DNA of 64,000 bases from an uncultured bacterium (GCA_965371665.1 CBDUZI010000001.1:9411-73410), one strand, 5' to 3'; shown: positions 261 to 25,662, counted from the first letter of the stretch. The notes: generated by a model from the letters alone, not told the origin. Made by a program: numbers and translations.

Positions 261-1571
261 CTATTTAGCCATTACTTTTTGTTTAGTCTTCCAAGCCTGT
301 TTAAGCACTTTTTCCGGATCAGACTTTCCGATTAAAATGGACTGCATGCCTTTTGAGATCACTTCCCGGACTTCATATTTTTCTTCCATTTTCAGGTCCG
401 GGGTAAGATTTCGCATGCCCTTGGCAAAATCCTTAAGCAAAGGATCAATCTCATCCATGGCTTGGAAATTCGCCGGTATCTGCTTGGATTCCTTGGCCAG
501 CCTGACTTGTTGCTCTTTGGACAAAAACCAGCGTAAAAAGGCTACTGCTTCCTCCGGATTTTCCGAATTGTTGGTCACCGCACAGCCTTTCCCCACCCCG
601 CCGATAAGGTACATGGGATGGGCCGCATCCTCCGGCTTGGGAAAAGGAAAAACACCCAATTCCAGTTCCGAATTCATCTCGAGATAGACATTTACCGCCC
701 AGGAACCATTCAACATCATGGCCGCCTTCTGATTGGCAAAATTGATTTCCGCGTCTTTGTTGGACATGGAAACCGCTCCGGGGTAGAGTATCTTTTTTTT
801 CTGCATATCCACCACGCGCTCGAGAACGCTTACACATCCCGGGTCAGTATAGGGCAAGGTTCCCGAGTATAACTTGCGCATTTTTTCTTCTCCCAGATAA
901 GTCCAGCAATAAGCATTAAAAAAGGTATAATCGATCCAAAGATCTCCGAAGCCCACCAGGAAGGGAGGAATGCCGGCACGGTTAAGCTGATCCCCGGCCT
1001 CCAGGAATTCGTCCCAGGTTGCCGGGGGTTTTTCGGGATCCAGACCGGCTTTTTTGAAAAGCTGCTTATTGTAATATATCTGAATATTCATTACGGAAAT
1101 CGGCACACCCCAGAAGGTATCGGGCTTAACCTCATAGGCATTGCCTTCCTCGTAATGAAACGCTTTTAAGGCCCGCGGAAAAAAGGTGTTACGCCAGGCA
1201 GAAGTATCCGCGTTCAATTTCCCGGTCATTTCATATATTCTTCCAGCCCGAATATAGCGGGCCAGAAGTTCTCCGCCTCCCGCCAAGCCAATGATATCCG
1301 GCAAGGTGTTGGCATTAGCCGAGGCTTGCAGCTTATTAAAGTAATCCGAACCGACCGGCGCCGAGAGTTCGAATGCCACCTTAACCCCGGTCTCTTCCTC
1401 ATATTCCTTGGCCATACTTTCAAACATGGATTGCTGATCCGCCCACCATTCCCAAAAAGTAATTTTTACCTCCCTCTTTTTCTCGGGGTGCTTCCCGCAC
1501 CCGAACAACAAGCCACCTACCATCAAACCGGTCAATGCCAATGTGAACAGTCTACTTCTTTGAAGCTTCAT
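261..1571 (-). CDS. sugar ABC transporter substrate-binding lipoprotein (extracellular solute-binding family 1)
   Basis: 436 aa with a signal peptide and an LLFGC lipobox-like motif. Overall similarity is to MalE-type sugar-binding proteins (reading the translation). The ATG at 1571-1569 overlaps the TGA of the upstream gene (ATGA). Confidence 0.85.
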   Translation of the reverse strand: MKLQRSRLFTLALTGLMVGGLLFGCGKHPEKKREVKITFWEWWADQQSMFESMAKEYEEETGVKVAFELSAPVGSDYFNKLQASANANTLPDIIGLAGGGELLARYIRAGRIYEMTGKLNADTSAWRNTFFPRALKAFHYEEGNAYEVKPDTFWGVPISVMNIQIYYNKQLFKKAGLDPEKPPATWDEFLEAGDQLNRAGIPPFLVGFGDLWIDYTFFNAYCWTYLGEEKMRKLYSGTLPYTDPGCVSVLERVVDMQKKKILYPGAVSMSNKDAEINFANQKAAMMLNGSWAVNVYLEMNSELELGVFPFPKPEDAAHPMYLIGGVGKGCAVTNNSENPEEAVAFLRWFLSKEQQVRLAKESKQIPANFQAMDEIDPLLKDFAKGMRNLTPDLKMEEKYEVREVISKGMQSILIGKSDPEKVLKQAWKTKQKVMAK

Positions 1572-4500
1572 TTAATTTCCTCCTTCCAATTATTATTGCC
1601 CACGATATAAAAAACGGTAAAATTCCGCTTTTCCCCAGGCTTTAGAGTGACTTCTTTGCCTAATAGTTCCATGGTATAAAAATTCGAGTCCTGCCAAACA
1701 CCGATTTGACCAATCTCCTCATGCTTGAATAATTGCATAAAATAATCTTTAGTAGCTTGGTTTAGCCCTACCACCCAACCCGCACGCGGTTCATAAGAAT
1801 CTTTATCGATTTTCGCAATAAATTTTTCAGTTACGAACTTGACTCTTTTCTTATTTTCAGGGTCAGAGATTGGCATAATCATCCTATGTTGCTCGTCCGC
1901 AAAATTATTTTTACCCGGAGCAAGATCAGGATGATTGAACCACTGATATTTCATGATGTCACCCGATAAGTTGGTAACTTGATAGTCTACCTGGAGGCGT
2001 CTTCCCTTAGCAGGTAGTATCATAGTTCTTTCGAGAAGGAGCCCCTTGCGGGTTTTAGTATACATTTTAACCGCTGCTTCATTCCCGTCATCAGTTACAA
2101 TCTCCGCCTCCCAATGATTATTCCAAACCACACCAGGCCAGCCCGATGGAAACCAGTCATTTATACCTCCGTATTCAATCCAGTCCCTATCACCTTTACG
2201 TTTCGCTATCTTAGGATAATTTTGATAAAGCATATTAGCACCGGTTTCGCGATGATAAAACGCCATTATTCTCCCGCCAATATCCTGAACGGCTTGAATT
2301 TCCACTTCGGCATTCGCTAAAATGACATCCTCGTCGCCACGCTTCATGATATCACCCATTAACACTTTAGCTTCCCCTTCAACCACAACTGGATATATTA
2401 ATTTAAATCGTTTTATTTCCTGGGGACATCTCAATTCAAAACCAAGGGTTTCTTTTCGAGCTTTCAAAGGCAATATGGAAAACTCCAACAGGACCTCCCC
2501 ACCTTTAGGAACGCTGAAGTTTAATTCTTGCGGTTCTACTTGCAAACCCTTTGAGGGGGTTAACATCACTGTTCCTTGGGTACTCATATTCCCACTAGCA
2601 ATCAGTCGAATAATACCTGTACTTTTCTTACCTTTCACCAGCACTCGTGGTCCTTCGCATGAAATAATTCGCCACACGGGCAAAACTTCAACTTTCTGAG
2701 GTTTAGACTTAAAAAAATTCTTCTTGACTCGAAAACTCGCAATAATGTCATAAGTTTTTTTCTTTTCAAGACTCGGTGGCAAAACAGAAAAAGTAAGTTT
2801 CTTTGTTTTCCCTGTATTTAGGTCCAACTTTTCTTCCTTTTTCCCTTTCCACGCTTTCGGCAGATTTAGCATCACCCTCCCTCTGACTTTTTCCGTGAAG
2901 TTATTCTTTACTTCCACTTCCAGTTTCGTCCATTTTCCCGCAGATACTGCTTGTTGGTCAGTCAGAATATCAACCTCAAAGGGCGAAATAACTTTAACAA
3001 TACCTTGGGATGAAACCGTTTTTACTTTTCTTCCCCGTGGAGTAATGAGTTCTCCTTTCAACCAGATAATATCTCCGGCTTCCGCGGTAGAAGGAATTTG
3101 AAAGGGGAAAACGGTTGAGATCACCTGGCCAGAAGCTAATTGGGGGATAGGACGCGTTTTCAACACGTGCTGAGGAGAAAGTGTGGCATAACCCGCCCGG
3201 GAATTAATCACAGGTTCGTTGCGTTTCACGAGCCATGCGGATAACGCTAAGCGAGCATTAGAAAGCACTTTCTGACTTAAATTCCTCGCTTCCAAACCAA
3301 TCTGAATCTCGGTATTAACTGTTGCACTTAACTTTGAAGCACGTACATTAATAAAATAATCCTGCTTATACTTTGCATTATATTCCATGACATATGTACT
3401 CGCTTCCGTAGCCGCCCCAACAGCATCCGGATAGAAGGAGATCGTCTGGGGTGTAGTTGCCACGAAGGTTATTGGTCTCCCCCCCTGCCGGACAGTAATG
3501 GCTTCATCGAATTTCCATTCCGCAGGACGCGGTAAGGTTAAGAGCGTTTTTTGATATTGCTGCAACTGGATAACCGTGATCCGGTTTTTTTCTCTTTCAA
3601 TGACGAGGTACTGGTCGCCGGTTAAATCAAATCCATAAAGACGGGAAAAGCGGCCGGCTAAAAAGGTCCCGGAATTATTTGTAGCTATAAAACCGTTTTT
3701 AGAAACTGTATGGTTTAATACCTCCAGTTCATGGACATTTGAAATATTCGCCAAAATACCCAGATCAGGATAGGCGGACCAGAAAATCCGGTTGGGCTCC
3801 GGCTGGGAATAATTCAGTAGTGGTTTGCCCACATATTTGGATACGACTCGTTTCTGTAATTGATCCGCCAGGGCAAACCATTTTTTTTGATTATGCCATC
3901 TAGAAACCCAGCGACCATTCAGCATATGGTAGCCATGGGCGAGATACCAGACTATTTTTTCATGACTCTCACAAAATACTTCATGGGCGAGGTCATGATG
4001 AAAAAAACAAACATGTTCGTGACCGAGATACTGCGCTATAGGAAAATATTCCCAGTTCCCTTCTCCGAAAAGGTTATTATAATCCACACTCTCCGGAACG
4101 GTAAAAGAAGCCAAGCCGCTGAAACCGCTCATCATGGGTATCAAGCGATCGTATCCCTGTTCAGTAAACAAAGGACCCAATTTCAGGTATGCTTCACAGT
4201 TTTCATACCAGGCTTGGCAATAACCGATCGGATTTTTTAATGTCGGATTTAAATCAAAATAAATAAAACGCGCACCAATCTGATCCAGGAATAATATATC
4301 GATACCATATTCTTTAAAAAATTTATTCGCAATATGATTCCCGGCTTTGACCACAGCGGGATGGCGAGGCGAAGCCGCCCAGCCTTTTCCGCCGGAAGGA
4401 TAGAATTCATATTTAAGATCATTCTTTAAATCCCGGCTCGCTATCTCTTCCGGACCACCTGCTCTTTCCAATGTCGGACTAATATTCCAGAAAGTCGGAT

Positions 4501-6784
4501 TGGTATAAGGCATAACCACCAGGTCATGCTTCTTGGCCAAAGCAATGCTTTTTTTAAAATCGGCATTCGTCCCAAAGGTCGGATCAACAGGCCAGAAGTC
4601 CGGCATATGCCGATCGAAGCCTTCCAACCACCAAGCTACAAAATGAACAATCGTCCCTTTGGGCAATTCTTTAAAATATTTATTAACATAACGAAAACTG
4701 CGATTCATATCCAAAGAAATTTTCAATAATACCCCTTGCCTAATTTTAGAAAATAAGGTTTTACCCAATTTATCAATCAAAAGCGGAGCCTTGGTCAGCT
4801 TATTGTCTTTTTTAAAACGTCGCAAAGCAGCCTCAACTTTTTCACCAAATACCATTCTCAACGGTTGGCCCTCCCAGCTGGTTTTCGGCTCAATATAGGT
4901 CGTCCAAACGTGTTCATAAACACCACGCCTGCCGCGAGCGTAACCAACATTAATTCGGGTCGATTCGATCGGCTTATCTGCCCAAAGCAGAAAAGAAGAA
5001 AATTGTCCCCCGTCAGTTAAAGACCAGTTGATAAAGTCTGAGAATAAAAAGGGATAAGTCGTTTTCCAACGCCGTTTATTCTTAAAAAATTGCTGATTAA
5101 ATGCTATTCCCATACGCCACGGTAAATAAAATCGTTCAAGTTTTCCATAATCAAAGCTCAACTTGGGCATTTCCACTCCAATAACCGTCTTATCCTCATG
5201 ATTTTGAAATTTGGCATACAAATCAAAGTAGTTATAGTTACTGAACACCAAATTGACAGCCATGACCGAAGAACCTCGTTGGGAGAGCAAACGAAGCGTA
5301 CGGCTACTCTCGATCCATCGATATGAAAATTTTGCTTCCTTATCTGCCAGAAACTCCTCGGAATTGAGAAAGGTTCCTTCTTTAAACATAATCCGCCAAA
5401 GGTAAGCATGTTCAAACCCTAATGAAACTCGGGAATTATTTATCCTATCTGTCAGAGATTCGAAAACCCCGGTTTTGCGGCTCAGAATCACCTGATAATA
5501 CTTATTTTGAATTGTAAGTTGATTTCCGGTTTCAGAAAATCCCGGGGGGCTACTCTCTTGGGAAACCGTTTGGGCCCTATGCTTCTCCCCAAAAACCTTT
5601 TGCAGGCCCCCTTGATCCAGAGATTTTTTTTGCTTTTTATAGGTAACCGGCAATGGTGCTTTAGTATAGGGTTGAGCGGCGATCAGAGACGGAAGCGGTT
5701 GAATTAACTGGGAGGGAACAAAGCCTGCCACCAATTTGATTTTTCTTTTCCCGATAAATTTGACCGAAGAAAACTCGATTTCGTGACCCCTATTAGGCTT
5801 TTTCTCATCCTCGGTTGTAACTCCTAATTTTAATATAAATGTCTGCGGACCTTTTAAATAATTAAACTTCCCAGCTAAATCATAAATATACCTCCCGGGT
5901 TTGGAAATGTACTCTAAGCGATGATACCCTCCGCGAAATTGAGGGCCACTAAAAATCACATACATATTGGCGGTTAAGCGACCAACCTTAATCTCTAATT
6001 TGGGATACTCCTCGAAATCGACTGTCAGCTCTTTGTTTACACAGCCATAGCACTGGTGCGGGTAATCGCCGATTAGCTTGATTTTTTCATCTTCGGTTTT
6101 TTGAAGATGAGCGCCTGAACTCCCGCCATTTTCAGCACGATTACTCCAACCTAAAACGCTGGTTTCCAAGGTGGCCTTTTCTAACGCCGCTTCCTCAGCT
6201 TCTGATAAACCCTTCTGGGCCACCACCTTTATCTTTTTTGCCCTGCTGGAGGATACCAATTTCAAACTGGAAAATGTAAAACTCAATCCTTTATTTGCAG
6301 GACGTTCGGAAGTGGCTATCCCTAATTCCAGACGTATTCTTCGGACCCCATTCAAGCCGGTTGCTTTTCGAATATTGTAAGCTCTTTTCCCGACCGCCTT
6401 GGTTCCTTTTTCGGGCTTAATATAATCATTTTTACTAAAACCATCCTCGATATTAGGATTTTGAATCACTAAATACCAAGCCGCATTACAAGCCGTAACT
6501 TCAATTTCCAAAATAGGATATTTATCCAGGTCCCATTCAATATTCTGATAAACCATACCGTAAAAGAGGCTCGTGGAGGTGCCGATCACCCGGGCCTGGT
6601 TTTCAAAGAGCTTAATCTTAGCGCCGGTTGGGGTGTCGTCAGGCCAGGCCACACGCCAACGTTCCAGCGATTTATGCTTGGCATCGAATAAAACATGAGC
6701 CTTAACCTTGGCCTCCACGTGATTAACCCCCCAGGCAGCGAATATAAAGGCAGTAAATATTATTCCACATAAAAAATTTTTCAT
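1568..6784 (-). CDS. large secreted multidomain protein (1738 aa) with two N-terminal beta-sandwich domains, a central TIM-barrel glycoside-hydrolase-like domain, and a C-terminal beta-rich domain
   Basis: The signal peptide is MKNFLCGIIFTAFIFAAWGVNHVEA. The N-terminal repeats carry the AAWYLVIQNP and DFEEYPKLEIKVGRL motifs also found in the giant protein and the 9612 gene. The central HFVAWWLEGFDRHMPDFWP...DILFLDQIGA region (roughly 3600-4650) looks like a TIM-barrel glycoside-hydrolase-like domain. The 4-nt overlap with the binding-protein gene implies cotranscription. Confidence 0.75.
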   Translation of the reverse strand: MKNFLCGIIFTAFIFAAWGVNHVEAKVKAHVLFDAKHKSLERWRVAWPDDTPTGAKIKLFENQARVIGTSTSLFYGMVYQNIEWDLDKYPILEIEVTACNAAWYLVIQNPNIEDGFSKNDYIKPEKGTKAVGKRAYNIRKATGLNGVRRIRLELGIATSERPANKGLSFTFSSLKLVSSSRAKKIKVVAQKGLSEAEEAALEKATLETSVLGWSNRAENGGSSGAHLQKTEDEKIKLIGDYPHQCYGCVNKELTVDFEEYPKLEIKVGRLTANMYVIFSGPQFRGGYHRLEYISKPGRYIYDLAGKFNYLKGPQTFILKLGVTTEDEKKPNRGHEIEFSSVKFIGKRKIKLVAGFVPSQLIQPLPSLIAAQPYTKAPLPVTYKKQKKSLDQGGLQKVFGEKHRAQTVSQESSPPGFSETGNQLTIQNKYYQVILSRKTGVFESLTDRINNSRVSLGFEHAYLWRIMFKEGTFLNSEEFLADKEAKFSYRWIESSRTLRLLSQRGSSVMAVNLVFSNYNYFDLYAKFQNHEDKTVIGVEMPKLSFDYGKLERFYLPWRMGIAFNQQFFKNKRRWKTTYPFLFSDFINWSLTDGGQFSSFLLWADKPIESTRINVGYARGRRGVYEHVWTTYIEPKTSWEGQPLRMVFGEKVEAALRRFKKDNKLTKAPLLIDKLGKTLFSKIRQGVLLKISLDMNRSFRYVNKYFKELPKGTIVHFVAWWLEGFDRHMPDFWPVDPTFGTNADFKKSIALAKKHDLVVMPYTNPTFWNISPTLERAGGPEEIASRDLKNDLKYEFYPSGGKGWAASPRHPAVVKAGNHIANKFFKEYGIDILFLDQIGARFIYFDLNPTLKNPIGYCQAWYENCEAYLKLGPLFTEQGYDRLIPMMSGFSGLASFTVPESVDYNNLFGEGNWEYFPIAQYLGHEHVCFFHHDLAHEVFCESHEKIVWYLAHGYHMLNGRWVSRWHNQKKWFALADQLQKRVVSKYVGKPLLNYSQPEPNRIFWSAYPDLGILANISNVHELEVLNHTVSKNGFIATNNSGTFLAGRFSRLYGFDLTGDQYLVIEREKNRITVIQLQQYQKTLLTLPRPAEWKFDEAITVRQGGRPITFVATTPQTISFYPDAVGAATEASTYVMEYNAKYKQDYFINVRASKLSATVNTEIQIGLEARNLSQKVLSNARLALSAWLVKRNEPVINSRAGYATLSPQHVLKTRPIPQLASGQVISTVFPFQIPSTAEAGDIIWLKGELITPRGRKVKTVSSQGIVKVISPFEVDILTDQQAVSAGKWTKLEVEVKNNFTEKVRGRVMLNLPKAWKGKKEEKLDLNTGKTKKLTFSVLPPSLEKKKTYDIIASFRVKKNFFKSKPQKVEVLPVWRIISCEGPRVLVKGKKSTGIIRLIASGNMSTQGTVMLTPSKGLQVEPQELNFSVPKGGEVLLEFSILPLKARKETLGFELRCPQEIKRFKLIYPVVVEGEAKVLMGDIMKRGDEDVILANAEVEIQAVQDIGGRIMAFYHRETGANMLYQNYPKIAKRKGDRDWIEYGGINDWFPSGWPGVVWNNHWEAEIVTDDGNEAAVKMYTKTRKGLLLERTMILPAKGRRLQVDYQVTNLSGDIMKYQWFNHPDLAPGKNNFADEQHRMIMPISDPENKKRVKFVTEKFIAKIDKDSYEPRAGWVVGLNQATKDYFMQLFKHEEIGQIGVWQDSNFYTMELLGKEVTLKPGEKRNFTVFYIVGNNNWKEEIK

Positions 6785-7042
6785 TAAGCATAACCCTCCT
6801 AATTCGACTCTGCAATCAGCCTTTTACAGCCTCGGCTCTTCGTCTTATACTACCCACCCCAAACCGAAAGCAAAAACTGCTTTTTAGACACAGAAGCTCG
6901 AAGATTAAATCCCAAATCCGAAGCACCAAATCCGAAACAAATCCAAATTTCAAACTTCAAAATTCAAATAAAAAACAAGAAAAATCTTTGACCGGCTTTA
7001 CAGGATATACAAGATTTTATAAAAAATCATGTTCATCCTGTC

Positions 7043-7112
7043 AAAAAAATCACTATTTTCCTGCCACAAGCGGTTAATTACGTTTATCTGCGTCCATCGG
7101 CGGTTGTTAATT
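7043..7112 (-). promoter_or_regulatory. conserved upstream element A (copy 1): tcactattttcctgccacaagcggttaatta-N-ATCTGCGtccATCGGCGGttgttaa
   Basis: A 70-bp block about 270-340 nt upstream of the 1568..6784 start. Near-identical blocks occur at 18592-18670 and 22485-22552, and the core recurs at 16765 and 20541. It contains a direct repeat of the CATC(G/T)GCG half-site at about 10-bp spacing. Confidence 0.45.
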
Positions 7113-7175
7113 TCTTGGTCATTCGAATTTCGATATTCGAATTTAATTACAATCTCTCTATGCCTCTGTGGCCCT

Positions 7176-8129
7176 CTAATATACCAAACCCACCGTAAAG
7201 AATTGAGTACCTCCAAAGCTGTCTGAGCTCCAAGTGGTAACCCGATAGGCATAGTCCAAACGAAAAGTGCACACCCCTATTGCTGTCCGAACACCGACGC
7301 CAAAGGTCATGCCTTCTGTCCCATCCGGGGCCAGGGCATACCCCAGGCGGGCCGCAAAAACACCGGCATAAAAAAATTCGCCTCCCATATGCAAGCTGGT
7401 TTCGGATTCCAGAGTCTGTTCAATATCCAGCGCCACAAAAAATTTTTCCAGTAAGCCTGACAACAAATCATATTTTGCGGAAAGAACAATACGCAGGGGC
7501 AGTGGATCCGCCTCATCGATGAATTTCAGGGGCAGGCCGAGATTTTTTACCGCCAGGCCGACCAGAGCCTCGGGCGCGGCTTCCCAGAGAACGCCGATGT
7601 CCGCCGCAAGGGTATTCGCGGAATATTCTCCCAGCGTGGAATTGAGAAACTTCAAGTTCAACCCGCAGGAGAAACCATCCAAAAATTTTGAGACCGGCCG
7701 GCCCAGGGAGATGATACCCAAAATATCTCTAACCTCAACGGACGACTGGCTGGTGCCGGCATCATTTAAAGACGGCATCCCGTGGTAGACAAAGGTAACT
7801 CCCAGTACTCCGAGGTGTGAGAACGGCATGGCAAAATTCAAGATCTCGGAATAGTCTTCCGCAATTCCGGTCTGATGCGTAAAAAGCCCGCTCACCCTCT
7901 GGACGGATTGCAAACCCGCCGGATTGTAAAATATAATCCCTGGATCGCCTGTTAGGGTACCACCAGCCCCACCCAAGGCACTGGCCCGGGCTGTGTTAGC
8001 CGTCACCAGCAACAGTCCTCCAGATGTATCGGCCGCATCGGCCTGCACCGCCAGGCAGATAACCGACATGCCGGCCACCACCAGACCAGTCGTTAGCATC
8101 AACATTTGAGAAATTCTTTTTGGGCTCAT
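7176..8129 (-). CDS. FadL/PorV-like outer-membrane beta-barrel protein
   Basis: The likely true start is MSPKRISQMLMLTTGLVVAGMSVICLAVQA (signal peptide); the ORF track extends it to 8234. The motif TLTGDPGIIFYNPAGL resembles the N-terminal FadL/OMPP1 hallmark (..ADDA...NPAxL). The protein ends in an aromatic residue (..TVGLVY). Its start ATG overlaps the TGA of the 8126..9601 gene. Confidence 0.65.
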   Translation of the reverse strand: MSPKRISQMLMLTTGLVVAGMSVICLAVQADAADTSGGLLLVTANTARASALGGAGGTLTGDPGIIFYNPAGLQSVQRVSGLFTHQTGIAEDYSEILNFAMPFSHLGVLGVTFVYHGMPSLNDAGTSQSSVEVRDILGIISLGRPVSKFLDGFSCGLNLKFLNSTLGEYSANTLAADIGVLWEAAPEALVGLAVKNLGLPLKFIDEADPLPLRIVLSAKYDLLSGLLEKFFVALDIEQTLESETSLHMGGEFFYAGVFAARLGYALAPDGTEGMTFGVGVRTAIGVCTFRLDYAYRVTTWSSDSFGGTQFFTVGLVY

Positions 8130-9601: not shown

Positions 9602-9611
9602 ACGCCATCCC

Positions 9612-14689: not shown

Positions 14690-14705
14690 AAATATTTTTC
14701 ATCTA

Positions 14706-15329
14706 TTATTTTTTTACTTTTTCAGCGCTTTTTACTTTTACCTTACTTTTTACTTTGTCACTTTTCTTCTTTATTCTACTTTTCTTCTTAATTTTACTTT
14801 TTCTTCCTTTTTCCTTTGCGACTATTTTTTTGCCATCTGTAATGCATACATCCGATATCTTCGCAACGGGATTTTCCTCCCCGCCTATCCAGATTTCTAT
14901 CCAAAAAGTATGTTCCTCCTGCCCCGGCCATGGCGTCTTTTCAGCCAGCTTCGCGGTATAAACTCCTTTGTCACTTGCTTCGGCAATGAGTTTATGGGAA
15001 TCATAAGGGTCACCAGCTGTCATAAGTTTAACTGTAATGGAGCCTTGGGAAATATCATCAAGCAATTTCAGGGAAAGCTCTGTGTTTTCTTCGATATTAA
15101 TTGTAATTCCAGCTTCAGATGACATAACCTTTCCAATTTTTTTCTCAGGAATAGCAGTTATAATCCCGATTTCATTCTTCTCATCCAATTCAAACTTGGC
15201 CTTAAATCCTGGATTGGTACTCTCATCGCGCCAATCGGAGAAATCATCCTTATACAAATTTTTTCCCTGCACAGAAGCAACGATACCCAGAGCGAATACA
15301 GCCGTTAAAAATACTTTTAAAAATTTCAT
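14706..15329 (-). CDS. small secreted protein with one F-x-D-W-R-D beta-sandwich domain and a lysine-rich C-terminal tail
   Basis: Signal peptide MKFLKVFLTAVFALGIVASVQG. Domain YKDDFSDWRDESTNPGF...TFWIEIWIGGEENP. Tail KEKGRKSKIKKKSRIKKKSDKVKSKVKVKSAEKVKK. Confidence 0.7.
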   Translation of the reverse strand: MKFLKVFLTAVFALGIVASVQGKNLYKDDFSDWRDESTNPGFKAKFELDEKNEIGIITAIPEKKIGKVMSSEAGITINIEENTELSLKLLDDISQGSITVKLMTAGDPYDSHKLIAEASDKGVYTAKLAEKTPWPGQEEHTFWIEIWIGGEENPVAKISDVCITDGKKIVAKEKGRKSKIKKKSRIKKKSDKVKSKVKVKSAEKVKK

Positions 15330-15613
15330 TTTCTTCCCTCCCCATCAAAAATTTTAAACTTACTTTTTTTGGGGTAACTGAAAACCCCTAAAAATGGACG
15401 CTTATAATAAAATAAGTTATTTCACTTTAAAAGTCAAATAAATTATCCATCCCGCCTAAAAAATTCCCTCCTTTCTTTATGATTTTCATCGAGATATGTG
15501 GGTTCTTTCCTTAAATATTAGTTAAGACCTCGGCAAGAGCAAAAATATTACATAACTAATGTGAGTTACTTAAACAAAATATAGCATATTTCCGAAATAT
15601 ACTGCGCTCCGGG

Positions 15614-16618: not shown

Positions 16619-16658
16619 ACTCTTTCCCCCTGCTTTATAAAAAACCGGAACCAAACTT

Positions 16659-16700
16659 AACCGCAGATGCACGCCGATTAAGAATCTTTTTTAAATCCCC
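16659..16700 (-). promoter_or_regulatory. conserved upstream element B (copy 1): GCAGATGCACGCCGATTAA(..)AATCTTTTTT
   Basis: This is the same half-site pair as element A in the opposite orientation. Similar blocks are at 20491-20540 and 22436-22480. It is followed by C7 and C6 homopolymer tracts (16697-16713). Confidence 0.4.
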
Positions 16701-16764
16701 CCCTCCTCCCCCCTTGAAAAAGAGGGATAGAAGAAGCACCCTTAGTAAAGGGATGATTCGGGGA

Positions 16765-16792
16765 ATTTATCTGCGTTCATCGGCGGTTAAAG
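16765..16792 (-). promoter_or_regulatory. element A core (atttATCTGCGttcATCGGCGGttaaag)
   Basis: Identical core to 7081-7105, 18641-18666 and 22528-22550. It lies about 150 nt upstream of the 15614..16618 start and overlaps the stop of the 16787..18565 gene. Confidence 0.35.
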
Positions 16793-18565
16793 AGTTTCGG
16801 CCGGTGGTGGCTGCTTGTTGTTTTGGCGATGCTGCTGCTCGAACATTTTCTCGATCTCATCCGGCTTCAACTGCATCTCATAAACTTTTAATTTTTCCCT
16901 GAGTCTTTCGAGATCATCATAACGGATGATGTCCTCCGGGCTGATCTGCTCCCTGACCAAATCCGCGGCTGCGGGTCCTGGCTTCGCAGTGGGCGTTATG
17001 GTTTCCGCAGCCCCTTTCTCTTGTCTGGGAGCGGTCGTGGAGGTTACTATTCCAGCCGGGATCAAAACCTTGAATTCTACGCGCCGATTGGTCGCGCGGC
17101 CTTTGGTCGACTTGTTGCTCGCAATCGGCCGGGTCTCGCCGAACCCGACCGGGATAAGGTTGAAGGAATTTAATTTAAACCTGCCTGCCAGGTATTCCTT
17201 GACCGATTCCACCCTCCGCTGTGAGAGCCGCTGGTTGTACTTGGCTTTGCCTACTGAATCCGTGTGCCCCTCGAGCCTCACTTTAATCTGGAGATATTTT
17301 TCCAGGATGGCACCAATCTGATCCATGGTTTTGAATGACCTCCGCGTAAGCGTGGCCTTGCCGGACTGGAACTGGATGGGCGGCGCCTTACCCAGTTTGA
17401 TAAGTTCGTCTACCTGATTCAATTCCGTCCGGACCTGCTGGATTTCCATCCTTAACTTGTCCACCATGGCCTTGAGCCTGGCTTCATCGCGGGCACGCTG
17501 CTCGGCCAGCTCCTGCTCGCGCTTGGCTGCCAGGTTTTCCTCTGGCGCGATCATTGCGGTCGGGGCCGGAGTGGGTTTGGGTTCAGGCCGTTGGCTCCAA
17601 CTGGCGGTCAAGGCCAGGCGGTGGGTGCCATAGGTCTTCTGGATATAGAATGGCAGGGCAAAGGCATAGTCGATCTTCAGCCGAGTCATGTTCAACTGCG
17701 GGAAGGTGTATTGCCCGCTGAAGCCGACGGTGAATTCGGTGGAATTCACTCCTGTACGGGCTGCTATCAGACCGTTTAAAAACCAACTCTCAGCGCCAAA
17801 CCGGACCGTGTTTTTATTCTGCGCGTAATTGCGGTTGACCAGTTCGGCAGAGAGCAGGATGTCATCGACCACAGAGTTGATGGGTTTTAAATCATGGCTC
17901 CAGGACACGCCCAAACGGAAGATGCAGGGTACCTCCTCATAGGTGGTAACCCCTACATCTGTTGGGATTAGATTTTCCAAGCACATGCCGACCACGAATT
18001 TTTCCGGAAGCGGATAGAGCACAGCCAGATCCGCGGTAAAACCGGTCTTGGAAAGCGCCTCGGTGTAATCATTGGCATCTACTGACCAGTTCAATATCTT
18101 AAGGTTCGCACCTACATGCAAGGTTTCGGTCTCATACTTTAAACTGCGGGCATACCCTATATTAAAGGTATTCTCGCGGTAAAAATATGAATTGAACTGG
18201 GACCAGGAAGCGCCAAAATACCCTATTTCCGGATTAACCGGTATAGCCGCGGAAATAAAACTATATCCCAAAGAGTCTCGTTGGCCCGTGAATAAACGTC
18301 CCTCAAATCCCGAAAAGAGACTGGCATACATAGAAGTAATTTCATAGCGGTCCATTAAAACCAAGCCCGCCGGATTCCAGTTGACAGCATTGGCATCATC
18401 AGCCACTGCCACAAAGGCCCGTCCCATACCACAGGGCCGCACCCCGGCGCCATAGTCAAAAAAGTAAGCCCAACCGTCAGCCGCAAGCAGACTCAAGCCC
18501 AGGCTGACAACAGCCAGGCAGAACCTAAACCTATAATGTCTTGTCTTAAGTTTCATCGTTATCAC
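16787..18565 (-). CDS. outer-membrane protein with an N-terminal FadL/PorV-like beta-barrel, a coiled-coil region and a C-terminal OmpA-like peptidoglycan-binding domain
   Basis: Signal peptide MKLKTRHYRFRFCLAVVSLGLSLLAA. GMGRAFVAVADDANAVNWNPAGL matches the FadL hallmark GLGRAYSG..AIADDAG..NPA. The C-terminal block KVRLEGHTDSVGKAKYNQRLSQRRVESVKEYL...NRRVEFKVL is a classic OmpA_C domain. Confidence 0.75.
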   Translation of the reverse strand: MITMKLKTRHYRFRFCLAVVSLGLSLLAADGWAYFFDYGAGVRPCGMGRAFVAVADDANAVNWNPAGLVLMDRYEITSMYASLFSGFEGRLFTGQRDSLGYSFISAAIPVNPEIGYFGASWSQFNSYFYRENTFNIGYARSLKYETETLHVGANLKILNWSVDANDYTEALSKTGFTADLAVLYPLPEKFVVGMCLENLIPTDVGVTTYEEVPCIFRLGVSWSHDLKPINSVVDDILLSAELVNRNYAQNKNTVRFGAESWFLNGLIAARTGVNSTEFTVGFSGQYTFPQLNMTRLKIDYAFALPFYIQKTYGTHRLALTASWSQRPEPKPTPAPTAMIAPEENLAAKREQELAEQRARDEARLKAMVDKLRMEIQQVRTELNQVDELIKLGKAPPIQFQSGKATLTRRSFKTMDQIGAILEKYLQIKVRLEGHTDSVGKAKYNQRLSQRRVESVKEYLAGRFKLNSFNLIPVGFGETRPIASNKSTKGRATNRRVEFKVLIPAGIVTSTTAPRQEKGAAETITPTAKPGPAAADLVREQISPEDIIRYDDLERLREKLKVYEMQLKPDEIEKMFEQQHRQNNKQPPPAETL

Positions 18566-18591
18566 CCCGGTCCAGCCGGAACCAAAAATGC

Positions 18592-18670
18592 GAAAAAATC
18601 ACTATCTTCCTGCCACAAGTGCTTAATTGCGTTCATCTGTGTGCATCGGCGTTCATCGGCGGTTAATTTT
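18592..18670 (-). promoter_or_regulatory. conserved upstream element A (copy 2)
   Basis: aaaaaatcactatcttcctgccacaagtgcttaattgcgttcATCTGtgtgCATCGGCGttCATCGGCGGttaa, immediately 5' of the 16787..18565 start. Confidence 0.45.
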
Positions 18671-18675
18671 CCACA

Positions 18676-19626
18676 TCATTTAATAACCACTACCGTTCCG
18701 GAAATCACGCGCCCCTCAACCTCGATCTGGTAGAGGTACAACCCGCCCTCCACGAAATGATGCCTCGAATTCCGGACATTCCAAAAACGGGTATCTTCCA
18801 GGGTAACCACCGGATAGCCGGTGGGATCGTAAATTCTGATTTTGATTTTCGAGTCCGGGTAGTTGGTATAAAAGTTGAAATACACCTGCTCTCCACGTAT
18901 GGGTTTGACCGGGTTGGGTGTGGCATAACAGCCGGTGTTAAAGTCAAAAGGATAATGGAAGAAATCCAGATTTAGCTGGCCCACGTATTCCTGTTCCGGT
19001 CTGCCCTCTACTGTTCTCATATCCGCGCCGATATAGACATAAAGCGGGGGCACTGGCACCGGTTGGCCTGCAGTAGGAAAATCGCCTAATCCCTCCGCCG
19101 TCACCATCACCCGTTCGGGCCGCTTCGCATCCCAGATTTGAACCCGGTCCCCGTCCGAACGGTCGTAAATCATACCCCAGTAGTGCATTGTATTGGGATA
19201 AAATCCCAGACCGCTGGCCACGGTCGTGACGGAATTGGGAGTTCCCCAGGTCCTGGCCACATTCAAATCGTAGCTATAAACCTGCCAATGCAGGGGAATG
19301 TTATCGTCCACGTTCAGTCGGGCTCGCAGGCCGCGGTAAAGGCCGTCCGTGGACTCGACCCCAAAACCCATCTTGCGATTGTCCGAATAGAGTTCGATGC
19401 CCCAGTTCGTATTGTTATGCCCAGGAAAGGTAATCTGAAAATAAAATGGTAGAAGCGCCGGCTCTGGGGGTTGAAGTATTCTCGGAAGATTCAAATCCGG
19501 CAGGCTATAGGCCGGGATAGTCAGGCTCAGGACATCTACGGTCATTAAAGCCCGGGCCGGGAAACTATTGACCAGTAGCAACAGGCTGATCGCTCCCAAG
19601 ATTTTCCAGGCCCGAATACACATCAT
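18676..19626 (-). CDS. secreted protein with a C-terminal FlgD-Ig-like / T9SS-type sorting domain
   Basis: Signal peptide MMCIRAWKILGAISLLLLVNSFPARA. The C-terminus IKIRIYDPTGYPVVTLEDTRFWNV...GGLYLYQIEVEGRVISGTVVVIK parallels the C-terminus of the 8126..9601 protein. Confidence 0.7.
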   Translation of the reverse strand: MMCIRAWKILGAISLLLLVNSFPARALMTVDVLSLTIPAYSLPDLNLPRILQPPEPALLPFYFQITFPGHNNTNWGIELYSDNRKMGFGVESTDGLYRGLRARLNVDDNIPLHWQVYSYDLNVARTWGTPNSVTTVASGLGFYPNTMHYWGMIYDRSDGDRVQIWDAKRPERVMVTAEGLGDFPTAGQPVPVPPLYVYIGADMRTVEGRPEQEYVGQLNLDFFHYPFDFNTGCYATPNPVKPIRGEQVYFNFYTNYPDSKIKIRIYDPTGYPVVTLEDTRFWNVRNSRHHFVEGGLYLYQIEVEGRVISGTVVVIK

Positions 19627-19719
19627 AAACCCCCTCTACTTAGACAGGATTAACAGGATTTTTTAAGGCATTTTTTTTATTCATTACCATCCGCTTTATC
19701 CTGTCTAAATTGCCTTTTA

Positions 19720-20478
19720 TCAGTACGCAGTAAAAGGAACTTTAAGTTCGGCGCTTTGGGGCTTGCCTAATTTTTCCACGCCGTAAAGCGTGCCCCAAAA
19801 CAGCCGCACGCCCAGCTTCCTCCCCTTGCCACCGGCTGCCGGTCCCTGGCCCTGCCAGACCAGCTCGTGGGTCTGCCCTGGGAAAACCGGCTTGTCAGGC
19901 CGCAATTCCACCTGCCAGAGCCTCTTTCCGGCTGAATCTTCCACCCAGGCCACGCCATAGGGTGTCAGGTGCAAAGTACCGGTGTTTTTGACCTGCACCG
20001 CGAGTTTAAAAAATCCGTCTTTTAAAAAACTCTGCTCAATTCCGGCTATTTTGCCATTAACCCTGGTTTCCCGGTTAATTCGCACAAAAACCGGCATGCC
20101 CATTCTTATATTTAGCGGAATCCTGCTTTCCTTTCTTTCGCCGGCAAAAAGCGAAAGCACGCACTCACCGCAAACCCTCTTGTCCATTCCTTGCAATTCC
20201 AGCCGGACTTTTTTGCTTTCACCTTTTTTCAGCCGCAGCCGCTTCGGTTCAAGCGAAGCCCACTCTCCAATCTTTAATTGGCACGGCCCAGAACGGCGAT
20301 ACTCGATCTCCATCCTGAATTCTTTGGCCTTGTCAGACTCGTTCTTGACAAGTACCCCGGCCGTGGTTCTTCGCTCAGCTTCATTCTCCAACACCAGCAT
20401 CTCCGGCTCAAACGAGACTTGAGACCAGGAGAAGGCGGCGAAAAGCAGAATGAGTAAAGTACAAACCAAAGTGCGCAT
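19720..20478 (-). CDS. hypothetical secreted protein (beta-rich; possibly chaperone/Ig-like)
   Basis: The likely start is MRTLVCTLLILLFAAFSWSQ; the ORF track uses a GTG at 20505. No recognisable catalytic motifs. Confidence 0.55.
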   Translation of the reverse strand: MRTLVCTLLILLFAAFSWSQVSFEPEMLVLENEAERRTTAGVLVKNESDKAKEFRMEIEYRRSGPCQLKIGEWASLEPKRLRLKKGESKKVRLELQGMDKRVCGECVLSLFAGERKESRIPLNIRMGMPVFVRINRETRVNGKIAGIEQSFLKDGFFKLAVQVKNTGTLHLTPYGVAWVEDSAGKRLWQVELRPDKPVFPGQTHELVWQGQGPAAGGKGRKLGVRLFWGTLYGVEKLGKPQSAELKVPFTAY

Positions 20479-20490
20479 AAAAAGCCTTTT

Positions 20491-20612
20491 CAGCCGCCGA
20501 TGCACGCCGATTAACGCTGATTAAAAATCTTTTTTCATAAATATCTGCGTTTATCGGCGTCCATCGGCGGTTATCCGTATTTATCTTTGTTCATCGGCGG
20601 TTAATTTTCTCC
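20491..20612 (-). promoter_or_regulatory. composite upstream element B (copy 2) plus an element A array with four CATCGGCG half-sites
   Basis: gccgccGATGCACGCCGATtaacgctgattaaaaatcttttttcataaat ATCTGCGtttATCGGCGtccATCGGCGGttatccgtatttatctttgttcATCGGCGGttaa. It overlaps the 3' end of the 20581 gene. Confidence 0.45.
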
Positions 20613-21549
20613 AGTGAGCCGGTCTTTCTCCGGCCCAGAGATAAACGTTAATATACTTAGTAATGCCCTGACGAACACCACTAGTCACCGAGATCAGATA
20701 AAATAGCGGGCCTTTTTCAAAATCAACATCCTTTGGGACATTAATTTCCAATTCTATTTTTTTACTTTTACCTGGATTGAGTTTTATCTCATCCGGCTTG
20801 ATTTTCACCTCATCCGGGTTGCCGCTGAACTGGCTTCCCTGGTCTGGCGTTACATCAGTATCTGCAGGATCCACAGAAGATAATAAATACCTTTGTTTTT
20901 TGGATGTGTTATTTGTCAACACGATTTCTTTATTTTCCTCGGTTAATACCTGGATTTCTTTGCCAGGTACAATCTCAAACATATCCACGCGCGGTGGATC
21001 GAGGGCATACGCCGCATCTGCCGGATTTTTCAAGGCTCGCGCGAGCCCCTGTTCATTGCGGCCCGGAGCTACTGAAAATAAAAAGTGACCATCGATCTTG
21101 AACCCATACTTGAAACCTCTGGCACTGGGATCGCCTGTGGTACTCATTATAATATTAGCTTGAAACTTACGGCCCAGCAAGGACTCATCATCCGGCAGAT
21201 TTACTTTCACATCCATCTGAATTTTGCCTTTTGCCGGAATCGTGGCTGCTCGGGAATCCAGCACAATCCAGTTGGCATCAGGAATAGCTTCATATCCCGG
21301 CTTGGGTGTTTCCGGTCTCTGCGGATAAACCGATACCGCGATCGGAATAGCATAGTTATTGCCCATAACCAGGGGAAAATTTGCCAATTCCTTCATGCTG
21401 ATGGTCTTTCCAATAGGGAGATTGCCCACATTAATCTTCGTATAATTCATACTAATTCCCGAATATTTTTCGGCTTTTTTAGCGGCCCAGAGGGAAAATG
21501 GAAAAATAAAATTCAGGATAATACCGAGAATGATTGCTTTTTTTAACAT
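20581..21549 (-). CDS. hypothetical secreted protein
   Basis: The likely start is MLKKAIILGIILNFIFPFSLWA (the track starts 6 codons earlier). A 1-kb ORF with a signal peptide and no recognisable motifs. Confidence 0.55.
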   Translation of the reverse strand: MLKKAIILGIILNFIFPFSLWAAKKAEKYSGISMNYTKINVGNLPIGKTISMKELANFPLVMGNNYAIPIAVSVYPQRPETPKPGYEAIPDANWIVLDSRAATIPAKGKIQMDVKVNLPDDESLLGRKFQANIIMSTTGDPSARGFKYGFKIDGHFLFSVAPGRNEQGLARALKNPADAAYALDPPRVDMFEIVPGKEIQVLTEENKEIVLTNNTSKKQRYLLSSVDPADTDVTPDQGSQFSGNPDEVKIKPDEIKLNPGKSKKIELEINVPKDVDFEKGPLFYLISVTSGVRQGITKYINVYLWAGERPAHWRKLTADEQR

Positions 21550-21650
21550 GGCATAATCTCCCCACAAAAATTTCTAAGCTGAAACTTTATTAAAAAACCA
21601 GGAAGTACGTAAGTCGAATCAGTCTTACGCACTTCCCGGTTAAAGAGAAA

Positions 21651-22301
21651 TTATACTGCATTTGCTCCAATAATGATCGTGATGGTCTGTTCTGCGCCGG
21701 CTGTAGTATCGCTAGAAGGCGCCTGGAAAAAATAACGCATAGACCGAAGCGAGCTAGCCGCTGGAACACTGAAGCCCTTAAACGCATCAGGATCATCTGG
21801 GTCAGCAAGAGCATTATTCCGGGCTAAATTATCCGTAGTCGCTACGATGTCTGTTCCTATTACTTTTAAAACGTCCTCCGTACCAAAATCTCCCTTCACA
21901 AGATTCCTCCCATCCTCATACGGGTTTTCACCAACAAGAGTCGTGTATGTGAAAATCGCCGCAAGCACAAATTGATCTGCCCCTATAGCATCTATATCAT
22001 TACCCAATCCCCAGCCGCCTGCAATAGCAGAAACCTGAGCTTTATAAGCAATCGTTGCATAGCCATTATTCTGAAGCGTGGAACGGGGCTTACCATCGGG
22101 ATTATTGGACAAATGTTCCGTGCTAACTGCTACGGCTCCAAACCCAATGGCAGCATCCCCTACCATCTCCAGATCGATCGGGTCTGAAGAAATCTTAACT
22201 GTAATATTCCAACTCTGCGTCGGTAAAGCAGCAAAACCGGAAACAGCCATCCCGCCTAAAAACGCGATTCCAACTAAAGCACCAAGAATTCTTTTCATAA
22301 C
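21651..22301 (-). CDS. small secreted protein (Gly/Ala/Asp-rich, possible surface or fimbrial-like subunit)
   Basis: Start MKRILGALVGIAFLGGMAVSGFA. Function unknown. Confidence 0.5.
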   Translation of the reverse strand, partial: VMKRILGALVGIAFLGGMAVSGFAALPTQSWNITVKISSDPIDLEMVGDAAIGFGAVAVSTEHLSNNPDGKPRSTLQNNGYATIAYKAQVSAIAGGWGLGNDIDAIGADQFVLAAIFTYTTLVGENPYEDGRNLVKGDFGTEDVLKVIGTDIVATTDNLARNNALADPDDPDAFKGFSVPAASSLRSMRYFFQAPSSDTTAGAEQTITIIIGANAV

Positions 22302-22435
22302 CATTTTACCTCTCATTTTTTTATTTTTGTTTCTGTAGGCATGGAGATAAATGTCGTCAAATTACAAAACTGCACAATTATTATAGCCCCCCTTTCGCTG
22401 GAATTTTCCTAACCCGGCCAAACCAAAACCAAATT

Positions 22436-22552
22436 TAGCCGCAGATACACGCCGATATACGCAGATTACAAATCAATTATCCTCTCAAAAAAATCACTAT
22501 TTCCCTGCCTCAAGCGGCTAATTACGCTCATCTGCGTTCATCGGCGGTTAAA
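22436..22552 (-). promoter_or_regulatory. composite upstream element B (copy 3) plus element A (copy 3)
   Basis: gccGCAGATACACGCCGATatacgcagattacaaatc...aaaaaaatcactatttccctgcctcaagcggctaattacgctcATCTGCGttcATCGGCGGttaaatcc, about 135-250 nt upstream of the 21651..22301 start. Confidence 0.45.
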
Positions 22553-23495
22553 TCCTTGTCGAATTTAACTTTGCGTCCTTTGCGTCTTTGCGGTAAATAA
22601 AAAAAATTTCAAACGCAAATTAGTTAATCGTTAGCCCTTCTTTATTTTGGACAACAAAATTCGCTTTTTATTACAAAAAAAAATGAACTTTTTTTAGGCG
22701 TCTACACAAACGCTTTTCTTAATCCTATCCCGTTTTTCGCATGTTTCCTGCTATGGCCAGCCATACTCCATCCCTCTGTGACTTGAGCGGTCGGTACAAT
22801 TAGCATGAAACATCTTCTTTTGGACTTTCTTTAATCCTCCTTCTTTATTGCCCCCCTTTAAATATCCCCCCTTTCATGCCGAAATAAATGTAATAAAAGT
22901 CGTTTTAAGGTAAACGAACCAGGATTACATCCCCTATTCATCGAATAACTGTTCGAAAAAAAGTTTACATGACGATAAAATAGGGATGTTAATATAATCC
23001 AAAATTAATTGGATGTCAATTTTTTTTTTTATCTTTCTAGTTTTTTGACCCAACTTTATCAAATACACTTTCAACCTTTTTTATAAATTTTGCGAAATAT
23101 TGGCAATTCAATTAAGGTAGAAAGAGATAAATTTTAAAAAACAGGGCATCCTAACATTTTATTATTATTTTATTTGACTTATTTAGCTTATGTTGTATTT
23201 TAGTATATCACAAATAATAAAAAAAAGCAAATACAATTTCTGCCTTTTTTTAAGCACAAAATTAAACGAATTCCCCGGTTTATGTCCTGGAATTTCTACA
23301 ATCTGTTGAAATAATAGGCTTTTTCTGGAACTACTGTTTCTTGCCTCACGAATGAATGAAGTAATGGAATGGTGAAATAATGCTTTTAAAGCAAAGCTAA
23401 GTTCTATATAAGTTCTATATAGGTGGATAACATTCAAACGGGTCCGCCATGGAGAAATAGTGAAAGCAGAGCAAAGCTAAGTTCAGGAGTGGTGG

Positions 23496-24344
23496 TTATC
23501 CCTTCACCGCCCCGGCTGTAAGTCCTTTAATAATATATTTGGATAGGAAAAAATAAATAATTAATAAAGGAATAGTCGCAATCGTGAGACCGGCCATAAG
23601 TAAGGCATAATCCGTAAGGTGTTCTCCCTGAAATACCATGAGTCCCCGTTGAATCGGCATCAGGGCCCGGTTATTAATAATAATCAGCGCCAAAAGAAAC
23701 TCATTCCATACCGCCAGGATAGTAAATATGGCTACCGTGGCAATCGCCGGGGTAGACAAGGGCAGAAATATCCGCCAATATAAGTTGAATTTGTTGCACC
23801 CGTCAATAATTGCCGCCTCTTCTATCTCCTTAGGCACATTTTCAAAGAAAGTTTTAAGAATAAAAATTGCCAGGGCTAACCCGGCATTAGTATAGGGAAG
23901 AATCAGTCCCAAGCGGGTATCGGCTAACCCTAATTTAATTAATAAAATATAAAGCGGAATAAAAGCGCCGGGTATGGGTATCATGAGCGAGCCAATAAAC
24001 AATAAGTATAAAAGGTTATGTCCCACAAATTTAAAGCGAGCAAAGGCATATGCCGCCATGGAGGCCAGGAATAGTACTAAACCCAGAGTAATGGCAGCAT
24101 AAAGAATGCTATTAAAAAAATAAATACCAAACGAGCCGACTTCCCAGGCAGTTATATAATTAGCGAATTTCCAAGCTTGCGGAATCAGGGAAATATTAGA
24201 AAATACTTCATTCTTGTCCTTGAGGGATGAAGCGAACATCCAGAGCAGTGGAAATACACTCGCAAACGCCCATAAAATAAGCGTACTATGTACGGGAATA
24301 TTGGCAAACGCCTTACGCCTGATTCTCATATCTTCCAGCCACAT
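23496..24344 (-). CDS. carbohydrate ABC transporter permease (MalG-like, 6 TM)
   Basis: EAA-loop motif EAAIIDGCNKFNLYWRIFLPLSTPAIATVAIFT and typical TM topology. Confidence 0.9.
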   Translation of the reverse strand: MWLEDMRIRRKAFANIPVHSTLILWAFASVFPLLWMFASSLKDKNEVFSNISLIPQAWKFANYITAWEVGSFGIYFFNSILYAAITLGLVLFLASMAAYAFARFKFVGHNLLYLLFIGSLMIPIPGAFIPLYILLIKLGLADTRLGLILPYTNAGLALAIFILKTFFENVPKEIEEAAIIDGCNKFNLYWRIFLPLSTPAIATVAIFTILAVWNEFLLALIIINNRALMPIQRGLMVFQGEHLTDYALLMAGLTIATIPLLIIYFFLSKYIIKGLTAGAVKG

Positions 24345-24435
24345 CCTTTCATACTTAATTCGCCGTTTACCTTAGGTTTGCATTCTTGCAGCCTGTAAAG
24401 AAGTTTATATTTATTCCGCTCCAGATAATTTTTTT

Positions 24436-25338
24436 TCAACGAGTGTCTAATCTTTTACTAAGTTTCAATTGCCCCAGCGATAAAATCAGAAGCATAATCC
24501 CCAGTATAACGGCTTGAGCCGTAGCATAACCAAAATGGTATGACTCAAAAGCCATCTTATAGATACGCGTTACCGGCACCTCGGTATGGAATCCGGGACC
24601 ACCATTGGTCATGGCAATTACCAGGGGAAAAGTCTGCATAGTTCCCAACAGGGTTAAAATGAAGACTAAAGTCGCAACGGGTATCAGAGAGGGAATCGTA
24701 ACATGAAGAAATCTTTTCCAGGCATTAGCGCCGTCAACCTGGGCCGCCTCATACAATTCAACCGGTATTACTTGCAGACCCGCTAAAAACAACAAAAAAG
24801 CATTACCCAAACCCTGCCAGCTCTGAACAATCGCCACTGCAATCAGCGCAGTATTTGGATCCGCCAGCCAGGGACGGGTAATATTTTCCAGGCCAATAAG
24901 GCGCAGCCAATAATTTAAAATCCCATATTCATAATTAAATATGAAACGCCAAATCAGGCCAACTACAATCAGCGAAAGTACCGGAGGAATATAGAATATC
25001 AGCCGGTAAAAATTTTTGGCACGAATATCCCGGTCAACCAAAACTGCTAGAAATAATGCCAGGATATTCTGTCCCACCAGGGCAAAAACCGCGATAAAGA
25101 GCGCATGACCTACTGAATTCCACCAGACTTTATTTTGGGTAAAAATATCAACATAATTATTCAGTCCTACCCAAATAGGGTTGGAGGATATTCCATCCCA
25201 TTCGAAAAAACTGATTCTAAAGGTTTCCAGAAACGGATAAAGTCCGAAAATCAGAAAAATAGTCAGCGCCGGTAGCACAAAAAAGTAGGCTTCCCAGTTC
25301 CGCTTGGTTTCTTTCCAGTACAAATTCCATCCCGGCAT
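24436..25338 (-). CDS. carbohydrate ABC transporter permease (MalF-like)
   Basis: EAA motif YEAAQVDGANAWKRFLHVTIPSLIP and multiple TM helices. Confidence 0.9.
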   Translation of the reverse strand: MPGWNLYWKETKRNWEAYFFVLPALTIFLIFGLYPFLETFRISFFEWDGISSNPIWVGLNNYVDIFTQNKVWWNSVGHALFIAVFALVGQNILALFLAVLVDRDIRAKNFYRLIFYIPPVLSLIVVGLIWRFIFNYEYGILNYWLRLIGLENITRPWLADPNTALIAVAIVQSWQGLGNAFLLFLAGLQVIPVELYEAAQVDGANAWKRFLHVTIPSLIPVATLVFILTLLGTMQTFPLVIAMTNGGPGFHTEVPVTRIYKMAFESYHFGYATAQAVILGIMLLILSLGQLKLSKRLDTR

Positions 25339-25660: not shown

Positions 25661-25662
25661 CC

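Follow-up and report, generated by a model that had tools for sequence, protein, structure and literature searches.

A probable split operon for oligosaccharide import and an exported GH129-like protein beside a giant gene in an FCPU426-like bacterium

A 64,000-nt stretch of DNA from an uncultured bacterium (GCA_965371665.1 CBDUZI010000001.1:9411-73410; the whole stretch is hereafter called the window) carries a giant gene for a protein of 12,729 amino acids (aa). Two ATP-binding cassette (ABC) permease genes, perm1 and perm2, lie immediately 3' of it, and the genes of a 1738-aa enzyme-like secreted protein (g1738) and a sugar-binding lipoprotein lie much further downstream. The locus raises the question of whether the giant gene and the transporter genes work together. 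The original prediction assigned the whole locus, including the giant protein, to digestion of polysaccharides outside the cell and import of the products. Our analysis indicates that perm1, perm2, g1738, and the binding lipoprotein are probably parts of one ancestral operon of an FCPU426-like bacterium, encoding an oligosaccharide ABC importer of the carbohydrate uptake transporter 1 (CUT1) type and an exported GH129-like glycosidase. Judged by gene order, the permease pair once stood between a PorV-like gene and g1738 and has moved to its present place next to the giant gene. The link of the giant gene to the importer is suggestive, and this adjacency is not conserved in relatives. The minus strand carries all genes between positions 63852 and 261, and the features are as follows.

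25663..63852 (-), giant open reading frame (ORF), 12,729 aa, with N-terminal hydrophobic segments, GH5, three signature domains (described below), SecY and SecA-like domains
25621..25661 (-), hairpin 3' of the giant stop, perfect 17-bp stem, no U-tract; possible transcript end or stabilizer
25338-25663, spacer between the giant ORF and perm1, 325 nt
24436..25338 (-), perm1, 300 aa, MalF/UgpA/GlcT-like ABC permease with EAA motif
23496..24344 (-), perm2, 282 aa, MalG/UgpE/GlcU-like ABC permease with EAA motif
22317..23495 (-), AT-rich non-coding spacer, 1,179 nt, GC 0.34; breakpoint of the split operon
7176..22316 (-), 11 intervening genes whose products have a signal peptide or are of outer-membrane type, in the order g221, g328 (fn3_5), g261, g316, g592 (PorV-like + OmpA), g352a, g207, g358, g1204 (weak SlpA_C barrel), g491 (FlgD_ig, or like the C-terminal tail of type IX secretion system [T9SS] cargo), g352 (PorV/PorQ family)
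6785..7175 (-), spacer 5' of g1738, 392 nt; site of perm1-perm2 in relatives
1568..6784 (-), g1738, 1738 aa, with signal peptide and DUF6259/GH129-like module
261..1571 (-), binding lipoprotein, 436 aa, carbohydrate (CUT1) substrate-binding lipoprotein
140..231 (-), long imperfect hairpin 3' of the binding-protein stop, -48 kcal/mol, z -5.7
1..81 (-), start of a GH94 phosphorylase gene, 940 aa, continuing past the left edge of the window

The closest genomes to the window are labelled candidate division FCPU426 (perm1 76 to 82% identical), and five related loci were compared with it (L005, L006, L007, L008, and L085). All five showed the order g1204, g491-like, PorV-like, perm1, perm2, g1738 with short spacers, preceded by g207 and g358 in the three loci with the most upstream sequence. 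In the four loci that extend further (L005 to L008), the binding-protein gene directly followed g1738, and next came a binding-protein paralog or unrelated genes. In the window, the permeases are about 16.7 kb upstream of their g1738/binding-protein partners, and 22 kb separates them from the binding protein. Because the homologs are contiguous in the related genomes, perm1, perm2, g1738, and the binding protein can be assigned to one ancestral operon, and the proposed pairing of the permeases with the distant binding protein is borne out. Between the window and its relatives, identity was 76 to 84% for the permeases, 52 to 61% for g1738, and 65 to 73% for the binding protein; among the relatives themselves, the permeases were 73 to 89% identical. 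Since neither permease is disrupted and their divergence from the relatives does not exceed that among the relatives, the split importer probably still works, although its genes now fall into two or more transcription units.

The components are supported as carbohydrate-type (CUT1) by their family assignments, and not as the peptide or polyamine type. The presence of two MalF/MalG-type permeases on the same strand as the giant gene was confirmed, as both proteins matched BPD_transp_1 (Pfam) and their translations contained EAA motifs (EAAQVDGANAWKRFLHVTIP and EAAIIDGCNKFNLYWRIFLP). The best NCBIfam matches were UgpA/GlcT/MalF for perm1 and GlcU/UgpE/MalG for perm2, with much lower scores for the polyamine, sulfate, molybdate, and phosphonate models. 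The binding protein is a member of SBP_bac_1 (PF01547, E 1.9e-38), and its closest relatives among solved structures all bind oligosaccharides: NagB1, a binder of chitin oligosaccharides, comes first (E 2.9e-29), and xylo-, arabino-, and malto-oligosaccharide proteins come next. The families are thus the carbohydrate ones that the original prediction had presumed, and the ligand class read from solved relatives agrees with it. The lipobox Cys was present in four of the five binding-protein orthologs and was less clear in that of L006. The ATG of the binding-protein gene overlaps the stop of g1738 (ATGA at 1571..1568) just downstream of a Shine-Dalgarno sequence, AAGGAGGA; this previously noted overlap is real and recurs in L005, L007, and L008. 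The binding protein is the only sugar-binding lipoprotein in the window, as had been stated, but a 49%-identical paralog lies about 3.3 kb past the left edge, after the GH94 gene.

CUT1 systems are commonly powered by a shared, separately encoded ATPase such as MsmK, MsiK, or MsmX. Like the CUT1 importers (TC 3.A.1.1) of this kind, the system described here combines two EAA-containing permeases of the MalF/MalG type with an SBP_bac_1 lipoprotein, is genetically linked to a glycoside hydrolase, and has no ATPase gene detected in the operon. It differs from them in that the operon is split by about 16.7 kb and in that the gene for the binding protein comes after that for the hydrolase, the start of the one overlapping the stop of the other, instead of standing ahead of the permeases. 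A sugar ABC importer that has no ATPase gene of its own and is linked to a glycosidase is routine.

We then asked whether everything from the giant gene through the permeases and intervening genes to g1738 and the binding protein could form one coordinated digest-and-import system in which the giant GH5 domain supplies the products. We regard this as possible but doubtful. The GH5 domain (aa 170 to 407, 26.3 bits against a cut-off of 23.5) carries the motifs GVTNEID and LIFEEMG, with NE and EEMG at the expected places of the GH5 catalytic glutamates, and the region gave a marginal match in a PDB search. The permeases directly follow the giant gene. In addition, a GH94 phosphorylase gene follows the binding-protein gene in this genome, where it lies between the two binding-protein genes; it is not at that position in the relatives. 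The closest solved structure of the phosphorylase is a laminaribiose phosphorylase (E 4.6e-92), in keeping with a beta-glucobiose-type enzyme. It would be consistent with a route in which GH5 digests beta-glucan and the products are imported and phosphorolyzed, but misfits the alpha-glycosidase-like g1738.

Against such a single system, none of the four relatives with 5 to 10 kb of sequence upstream of perm1 contained a giant ORF within that stretch. The cluster is bounded upstream by a TonB_C protein in two relatives and downstream by BatD/BatA genes in two. The junction between the giant gene and perm1 was without independent confirmation. GC content at third codon positions was 0.56 for the giant gene versus 0.44 for the permeases; as a gene-by-gene test of common origin, this measure was too heterogeneous to decide and was dropped. 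A strong hairpin (-29 kcal/mol, z -5.5) starts only 2 nt past the stop codon of the giant gene. Promoter-like sequences are present in the 1,179-nt and 392-nt spacers. The best sigma-70-like site of the region, TTGACA-17-TATATT (23019..22991, 11 of 12 consensus matches), is in the 1,179-nt spacer. A 71-nt repeat has copies in both spacers (22549..22479 and 7105..7035) and is found upstream of g221, g592, and g1738. There was no evidence for a single transcript from the giant gene to the binding-protein gene; coupling is well supported for the g1738/binding-protein pair only. The proposed co-transcription therefore applies at best to these two genes and does not extend to the giant gene, which is also not bracketed as described, since both the permease pair and the g1738/binding-protein pair are 3' of it and the window holds 148 nt of its 5' side. 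The digest-outside and import function is supported for the importer and enzyme part of the locus.

A comparable neighborhood has been reported for the giant genes of Omnitrophota, in which a giant with a SecA DEAD domain is followed by binding proteins, permeases, and glycoside hydrolases, with PilZ gene(s) immediately downstream and a type II/IV secretion-like cluster upstream (West-Roberts et al. 2023, 10.1101/2023.11.21.568195). The giant proteins were reported to have SecA-like domains, and SecY was described as separately encoded (10.1101/2023.11.21.568195). The present giant protein resembles them in spanning the membrane several times and carrying a SecA DEAD domain, and its gene likewise has a binding protein, permeases, and glycoside hydrolases downstream. 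In contrast, the lineage is FCPU426-like, the giant protein embeds a full SecY domain (aa 2062 to 2373, E 6e-40) directly ahead of SecA_DEAD and SecA P-loop domains (aa 2475 to 3241), and the closest relatives do not have this adjacency. No ORF was found in the 325-nt gap after the giant gene, and no PilZ match was obtained among the scanned ORFs of at least 150 aa. Word-index homology searches with the SecY-SecA region and with the C terminus of the giant protein returned no matches. According to a 2026 preprint, the surroundings of Omnitrophota giants give a weak signal for carbohydrate import, below the secretion and carbohydrate-active enzyme signals, which also speaks against one system. 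Neither this preprint nor the 2023 one, whose text was searched for the term, mentions the FCPU426-like lineage. Specific to this locus are the FCPU426-like lineage, the adjacency as a recent rearrangement, and a domain shared between the giant protein and its neighbors. Proximity to a giant gene can be a misleading guide to function, as here the adjacency is a lineage-specific rearrangement of an otherwise self-contained sugar-uptake operon.

The shared domain is the best argument for a connection of the giant protein, although it is not proof. This signature domain of about 140 aa (motifs GWRD...YGKV...PG.Y..N...TGW.G...F.I.W.EG) has 11 copies in six downstream proteins (g207, g358, g1204, g491, g352a, and g1738). 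The giant protein has three tandem copies of it right after GH5, at aa ~486 to 878 (window ~61220-62396, minus strand). The giant protein had a total score of 79.9 bits, whereas none of 101 shuffled or reversed controls exceeded 2.5 bits and none of 9,273 unrelated ORFs exceeded 11.7 bits. Pfam gave no match in g207 or g358, both of which are almost wholly signature domain, and neither the signature-domain profile nor the C-terminal part of g1204 had a solved relative. The architecture of signature domain plus DUF6259, with the signature domain N-terminal to the enzyme, and small g207-like partner genes were also found in other lineages. As it is joined to two hydrolase classes, the domain may be a carbohydrate-binding or anchoring module. 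A functional tie of the importer locus to the giant protein through GH5 and the shared signature domains is thus plausible but unproven. More speculatively, and in our view improbable as a whole, the signature domain could be a new carbohydrate-binding or surface-assembly module that ties the giant GH5 segment, the GH129-like enzyme, the large putative outer-membrane barrel, and the T9SS-tail-like protein into a surface glycan-harvesting apparatus feeding the ABC importer, an independently arisen FCPU426 counterpart of the feeding machinery proposed for the giant proteins of Omnitrophota. An undescribed domain common to the giant protein and its neighbors provides a handle on the function of one giant segment.

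In addition to the transporter, the enzyme-like protein g1738 was examined. It contains two signature domains (aa ~40 to 350), a DUF6259/GH129-like module (aa ~415 to 1105), and NEW3-like Ig repeats. Pfam recognized DUF6259 in the center and otherwise gave only weak matches, to NEW3 and, at the C terminus, to DUF5107. As a single sequence, g1738 found no relative in the PDB, and a word-index homology search with its core returned no matches. An exhaustive homolog search yielded 517 cluster representatives, many of them stand-alone proteins of ~770 aa; DUF6259 was matched in all 10 homologs scanned with Pfam, in nine above the curated threshold. A profile of 60 sequences matched the GH129 enzymes 5opq (E 2.7e-8, over part of the protein) and 5wzn. 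AlphaFold2 modeled the core with a predicted local distance difference test score (pLDDT) of 93 and a predicted template modeling score (pTM) of 0.91 from the 60-sequence alignment, versus a pLDDT of 33 from the single sequence. The model corresponds to the GH129 fold, with an N-terminal beta-sandwich, a (beta/alpha)8 barrel, and a C-terminal beta-sandwich. A Foldseek search with this model placed GH129 at the top, followed by GH101, GH36, and GH31, and every close structural neighbor is a retaining alpha-glycosidase. The predicted structure thus makes the glycoside-hydrolase-like nature of g1738, as originally described, well supported at the fold level.

It is improbable that g1738 is instead a non-catalytic glycan-binding or structural surface protein built on a GH129-like scaffold. 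The identity with GH129 structures is only 11 to 14%, Pfam files the module as DUF6259, and the protein has many accessory domains, all of which would suit such a role; but the Asp D834 and the Glu E875 never vary among 60 diverse homologs, and the model places them on barrel strands or at their ends, as expected for a retaining glycosidase. Compared with the characterized GH129 enzymes (the alpha-N-acetylgalactosaminidase NagBb, 5wzn, and the 3,6-anhydro-D-galactosidase ZgGH129, 5opq), g1738 is distant at the identity given above, is classified as DUF6259, and is much larger, owing to the two N-terminal signature domains and the C-terminal Ig-like repeats. A distant homolog with the same architecture, P0004, is encoded 5 nt after an SBP_bac_1 gene and beside a GH130 gene and a LacI regulator, indicating that the pairing of enzyme and binding protein recurs. 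The gene context of a stand-alone DUF6259 protein, P0019, was uninformative. The large DUF6259 family thereby gains a structural assignment as GH129-like glycosidases, and at least two of its distant members adjoin sugar-binding proteins of ABC transporters. A further homolog was seen in L171 (GCA_018812485.1, JAHJDO010000138.1); it has 1283 aa, a 36%-identical core, and two signature domains, and it is preceded by a g207-like gene, with PilZ and ROK genes nearby.

Under the preferred reading of one ancestral importer and glycosidase operon, g1738 would be exported through its signal peptide and would act on a glycan, from which it would free oligosaccharides or small sugars. Judging from all of its close structural neighbors, the reaction may be of the retaining alpha-glycosidase type. 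The membrane-tethered lipoprotein would capture the product and hand it to perm1 and perm2, and a shared MsmK/MsiK-type ATPase encoded elsewhere would power the transport. The giant gene would be a neighbor gained through the permease rearrangement.

Several points weigh against this reading. The GH129-like g1738 would be of the alpha-glycosidase type, but the neighboring GH94 enzyme and the GH5 domain of the giant protein act on beta-linked glycans, so that the sugars have no obvious single pathway. D834 and E875 are only candidates for the GH129 catalytic Asp nucleophile and Glu acid/base, as placed by the model. The transcription units were deduced from spacers, hairpins, and consensus scans only. 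Finally, an LSGGQ or narrow Walker-A motif search, which was not exhaustive, detected no ATPase signature in the window, in the 7.7 kb past its left end, or in the five related loci. The reported lack of an adjacent ATPase agrees with this result to the extent that such a pattern allows, but the same narrow pattern also missed the SecA P-loop of the giant protein, and the absence is therefore indicated and not proven.

The join between the giant gene and perm1 could also be an assembly artefact or a strain-variable junction, which we consider very unlikely. In independent assemblies from other samples, which are 99.95 to 100% identical to the window, contigs L165 and L166 begin at the same position, 25508, and miss the giant stop by 155 nt, and no contig spans 25508-25663; the junction at 25338-25663 is thus spanned by no independent assembly. 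However, short low-coverage contigs (~4x) often end at strong hairpins, and the arms of the hairpin at 25621..25661 are not repeated elsewhere in the window or in the other loci examined. Moreover, the other two junctions of the rearrangement were independently confirmed: the perm2/spacer/g221 junction is present in L165, and in L167 the PorV-like gene is followed by the spacer (200 nt of its 392 nt covered) and not by perm1. A 10-nt string, CCGCGTAAGG, was observed at the giant stop codon (25659-25672, minus strand) and again at 25493-25512, near the contig-start position.

That the transporter takes a non-saccharide CUT1 substrate (glycerol-3-phosphate or glycerophosphodiesters, as in Ugp systems), with g1738 linked incidentally, is the least probable alternative, for although UgpA is the best NCBIfam match of perm1 (E 1.5e-36) and UgpB and UgpE are also among the matches, every NCBIfam score is far under the equivalog cut-offs, the E value for UgpB is 2.6e-11 versus 2.9e-29 for the top oligosaccharide binder, and the conserved operon includes an enzyme of glycoside hydrolase fold.

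The conserved cluster resembles the polysaccharide utilization loci of Bacteroidota in logic only, in that it groups an inner-membrane importer with a glycosidase and with proteins of the outer membrane or surface, all retained together as a block. The outer-membrane parts here differ, being PorV/PorQ-family proteins and a weak SlpA-like barrel, and uptake would proceed by an ABC system and not by a major facilitator superfamily or SusC route; no Pfam or NCBIfam match to SusC or SusD was obtained among the scanned ORFs of at least 150 aa. The window contains two PorV/PorQ-family outer-membrane proteins, one at 16787-18565 (an OmpA fusion) and one within 7176-9601 (minus strand), the latter adjoining the FlgD_ig/T9SS C-terminal-tail-like protein. 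These protein families hint at a type-IX-like sorting route outside Bacteroidota. Exact database look-ups of g1738 and of two PorV-like start variants found no record.

Other features concern the intergenic sequence and the flank. Rfam and tRNA scans of 1..26000 gave no matches. An intergenic repeat family was observed in one orientation at 7035-7112, 16765-16790, 18584-18671, 20537-20609, and 22479-22556, upstream of g1738, g352a, g592, g261, and g221. It consists of 10-nt periodic CCGATGAACG-like units and the 71-nt unit, with 77 to 90% identity between copies. The family is absent from the syntenic loci of the relatives, and two of its copies coincide with the breakpoints left by the move of the permeases. 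The 71-nt repeat was inspected by eye as a possible sigma-54 or Bacteroidota-type promoter, a reading that was dropped because the motifs misfit. Past the left edge, L002 2251-8372 contains the GH94 gene, a 60-aa ORF, the second SBP_bac_1 protein, which has no lipobox Cys, and two g221 paralogs. The hairpin at 140..231 is a repeated element that recurs at 95% identity about 7 kb further on, at L002 9331-9392.

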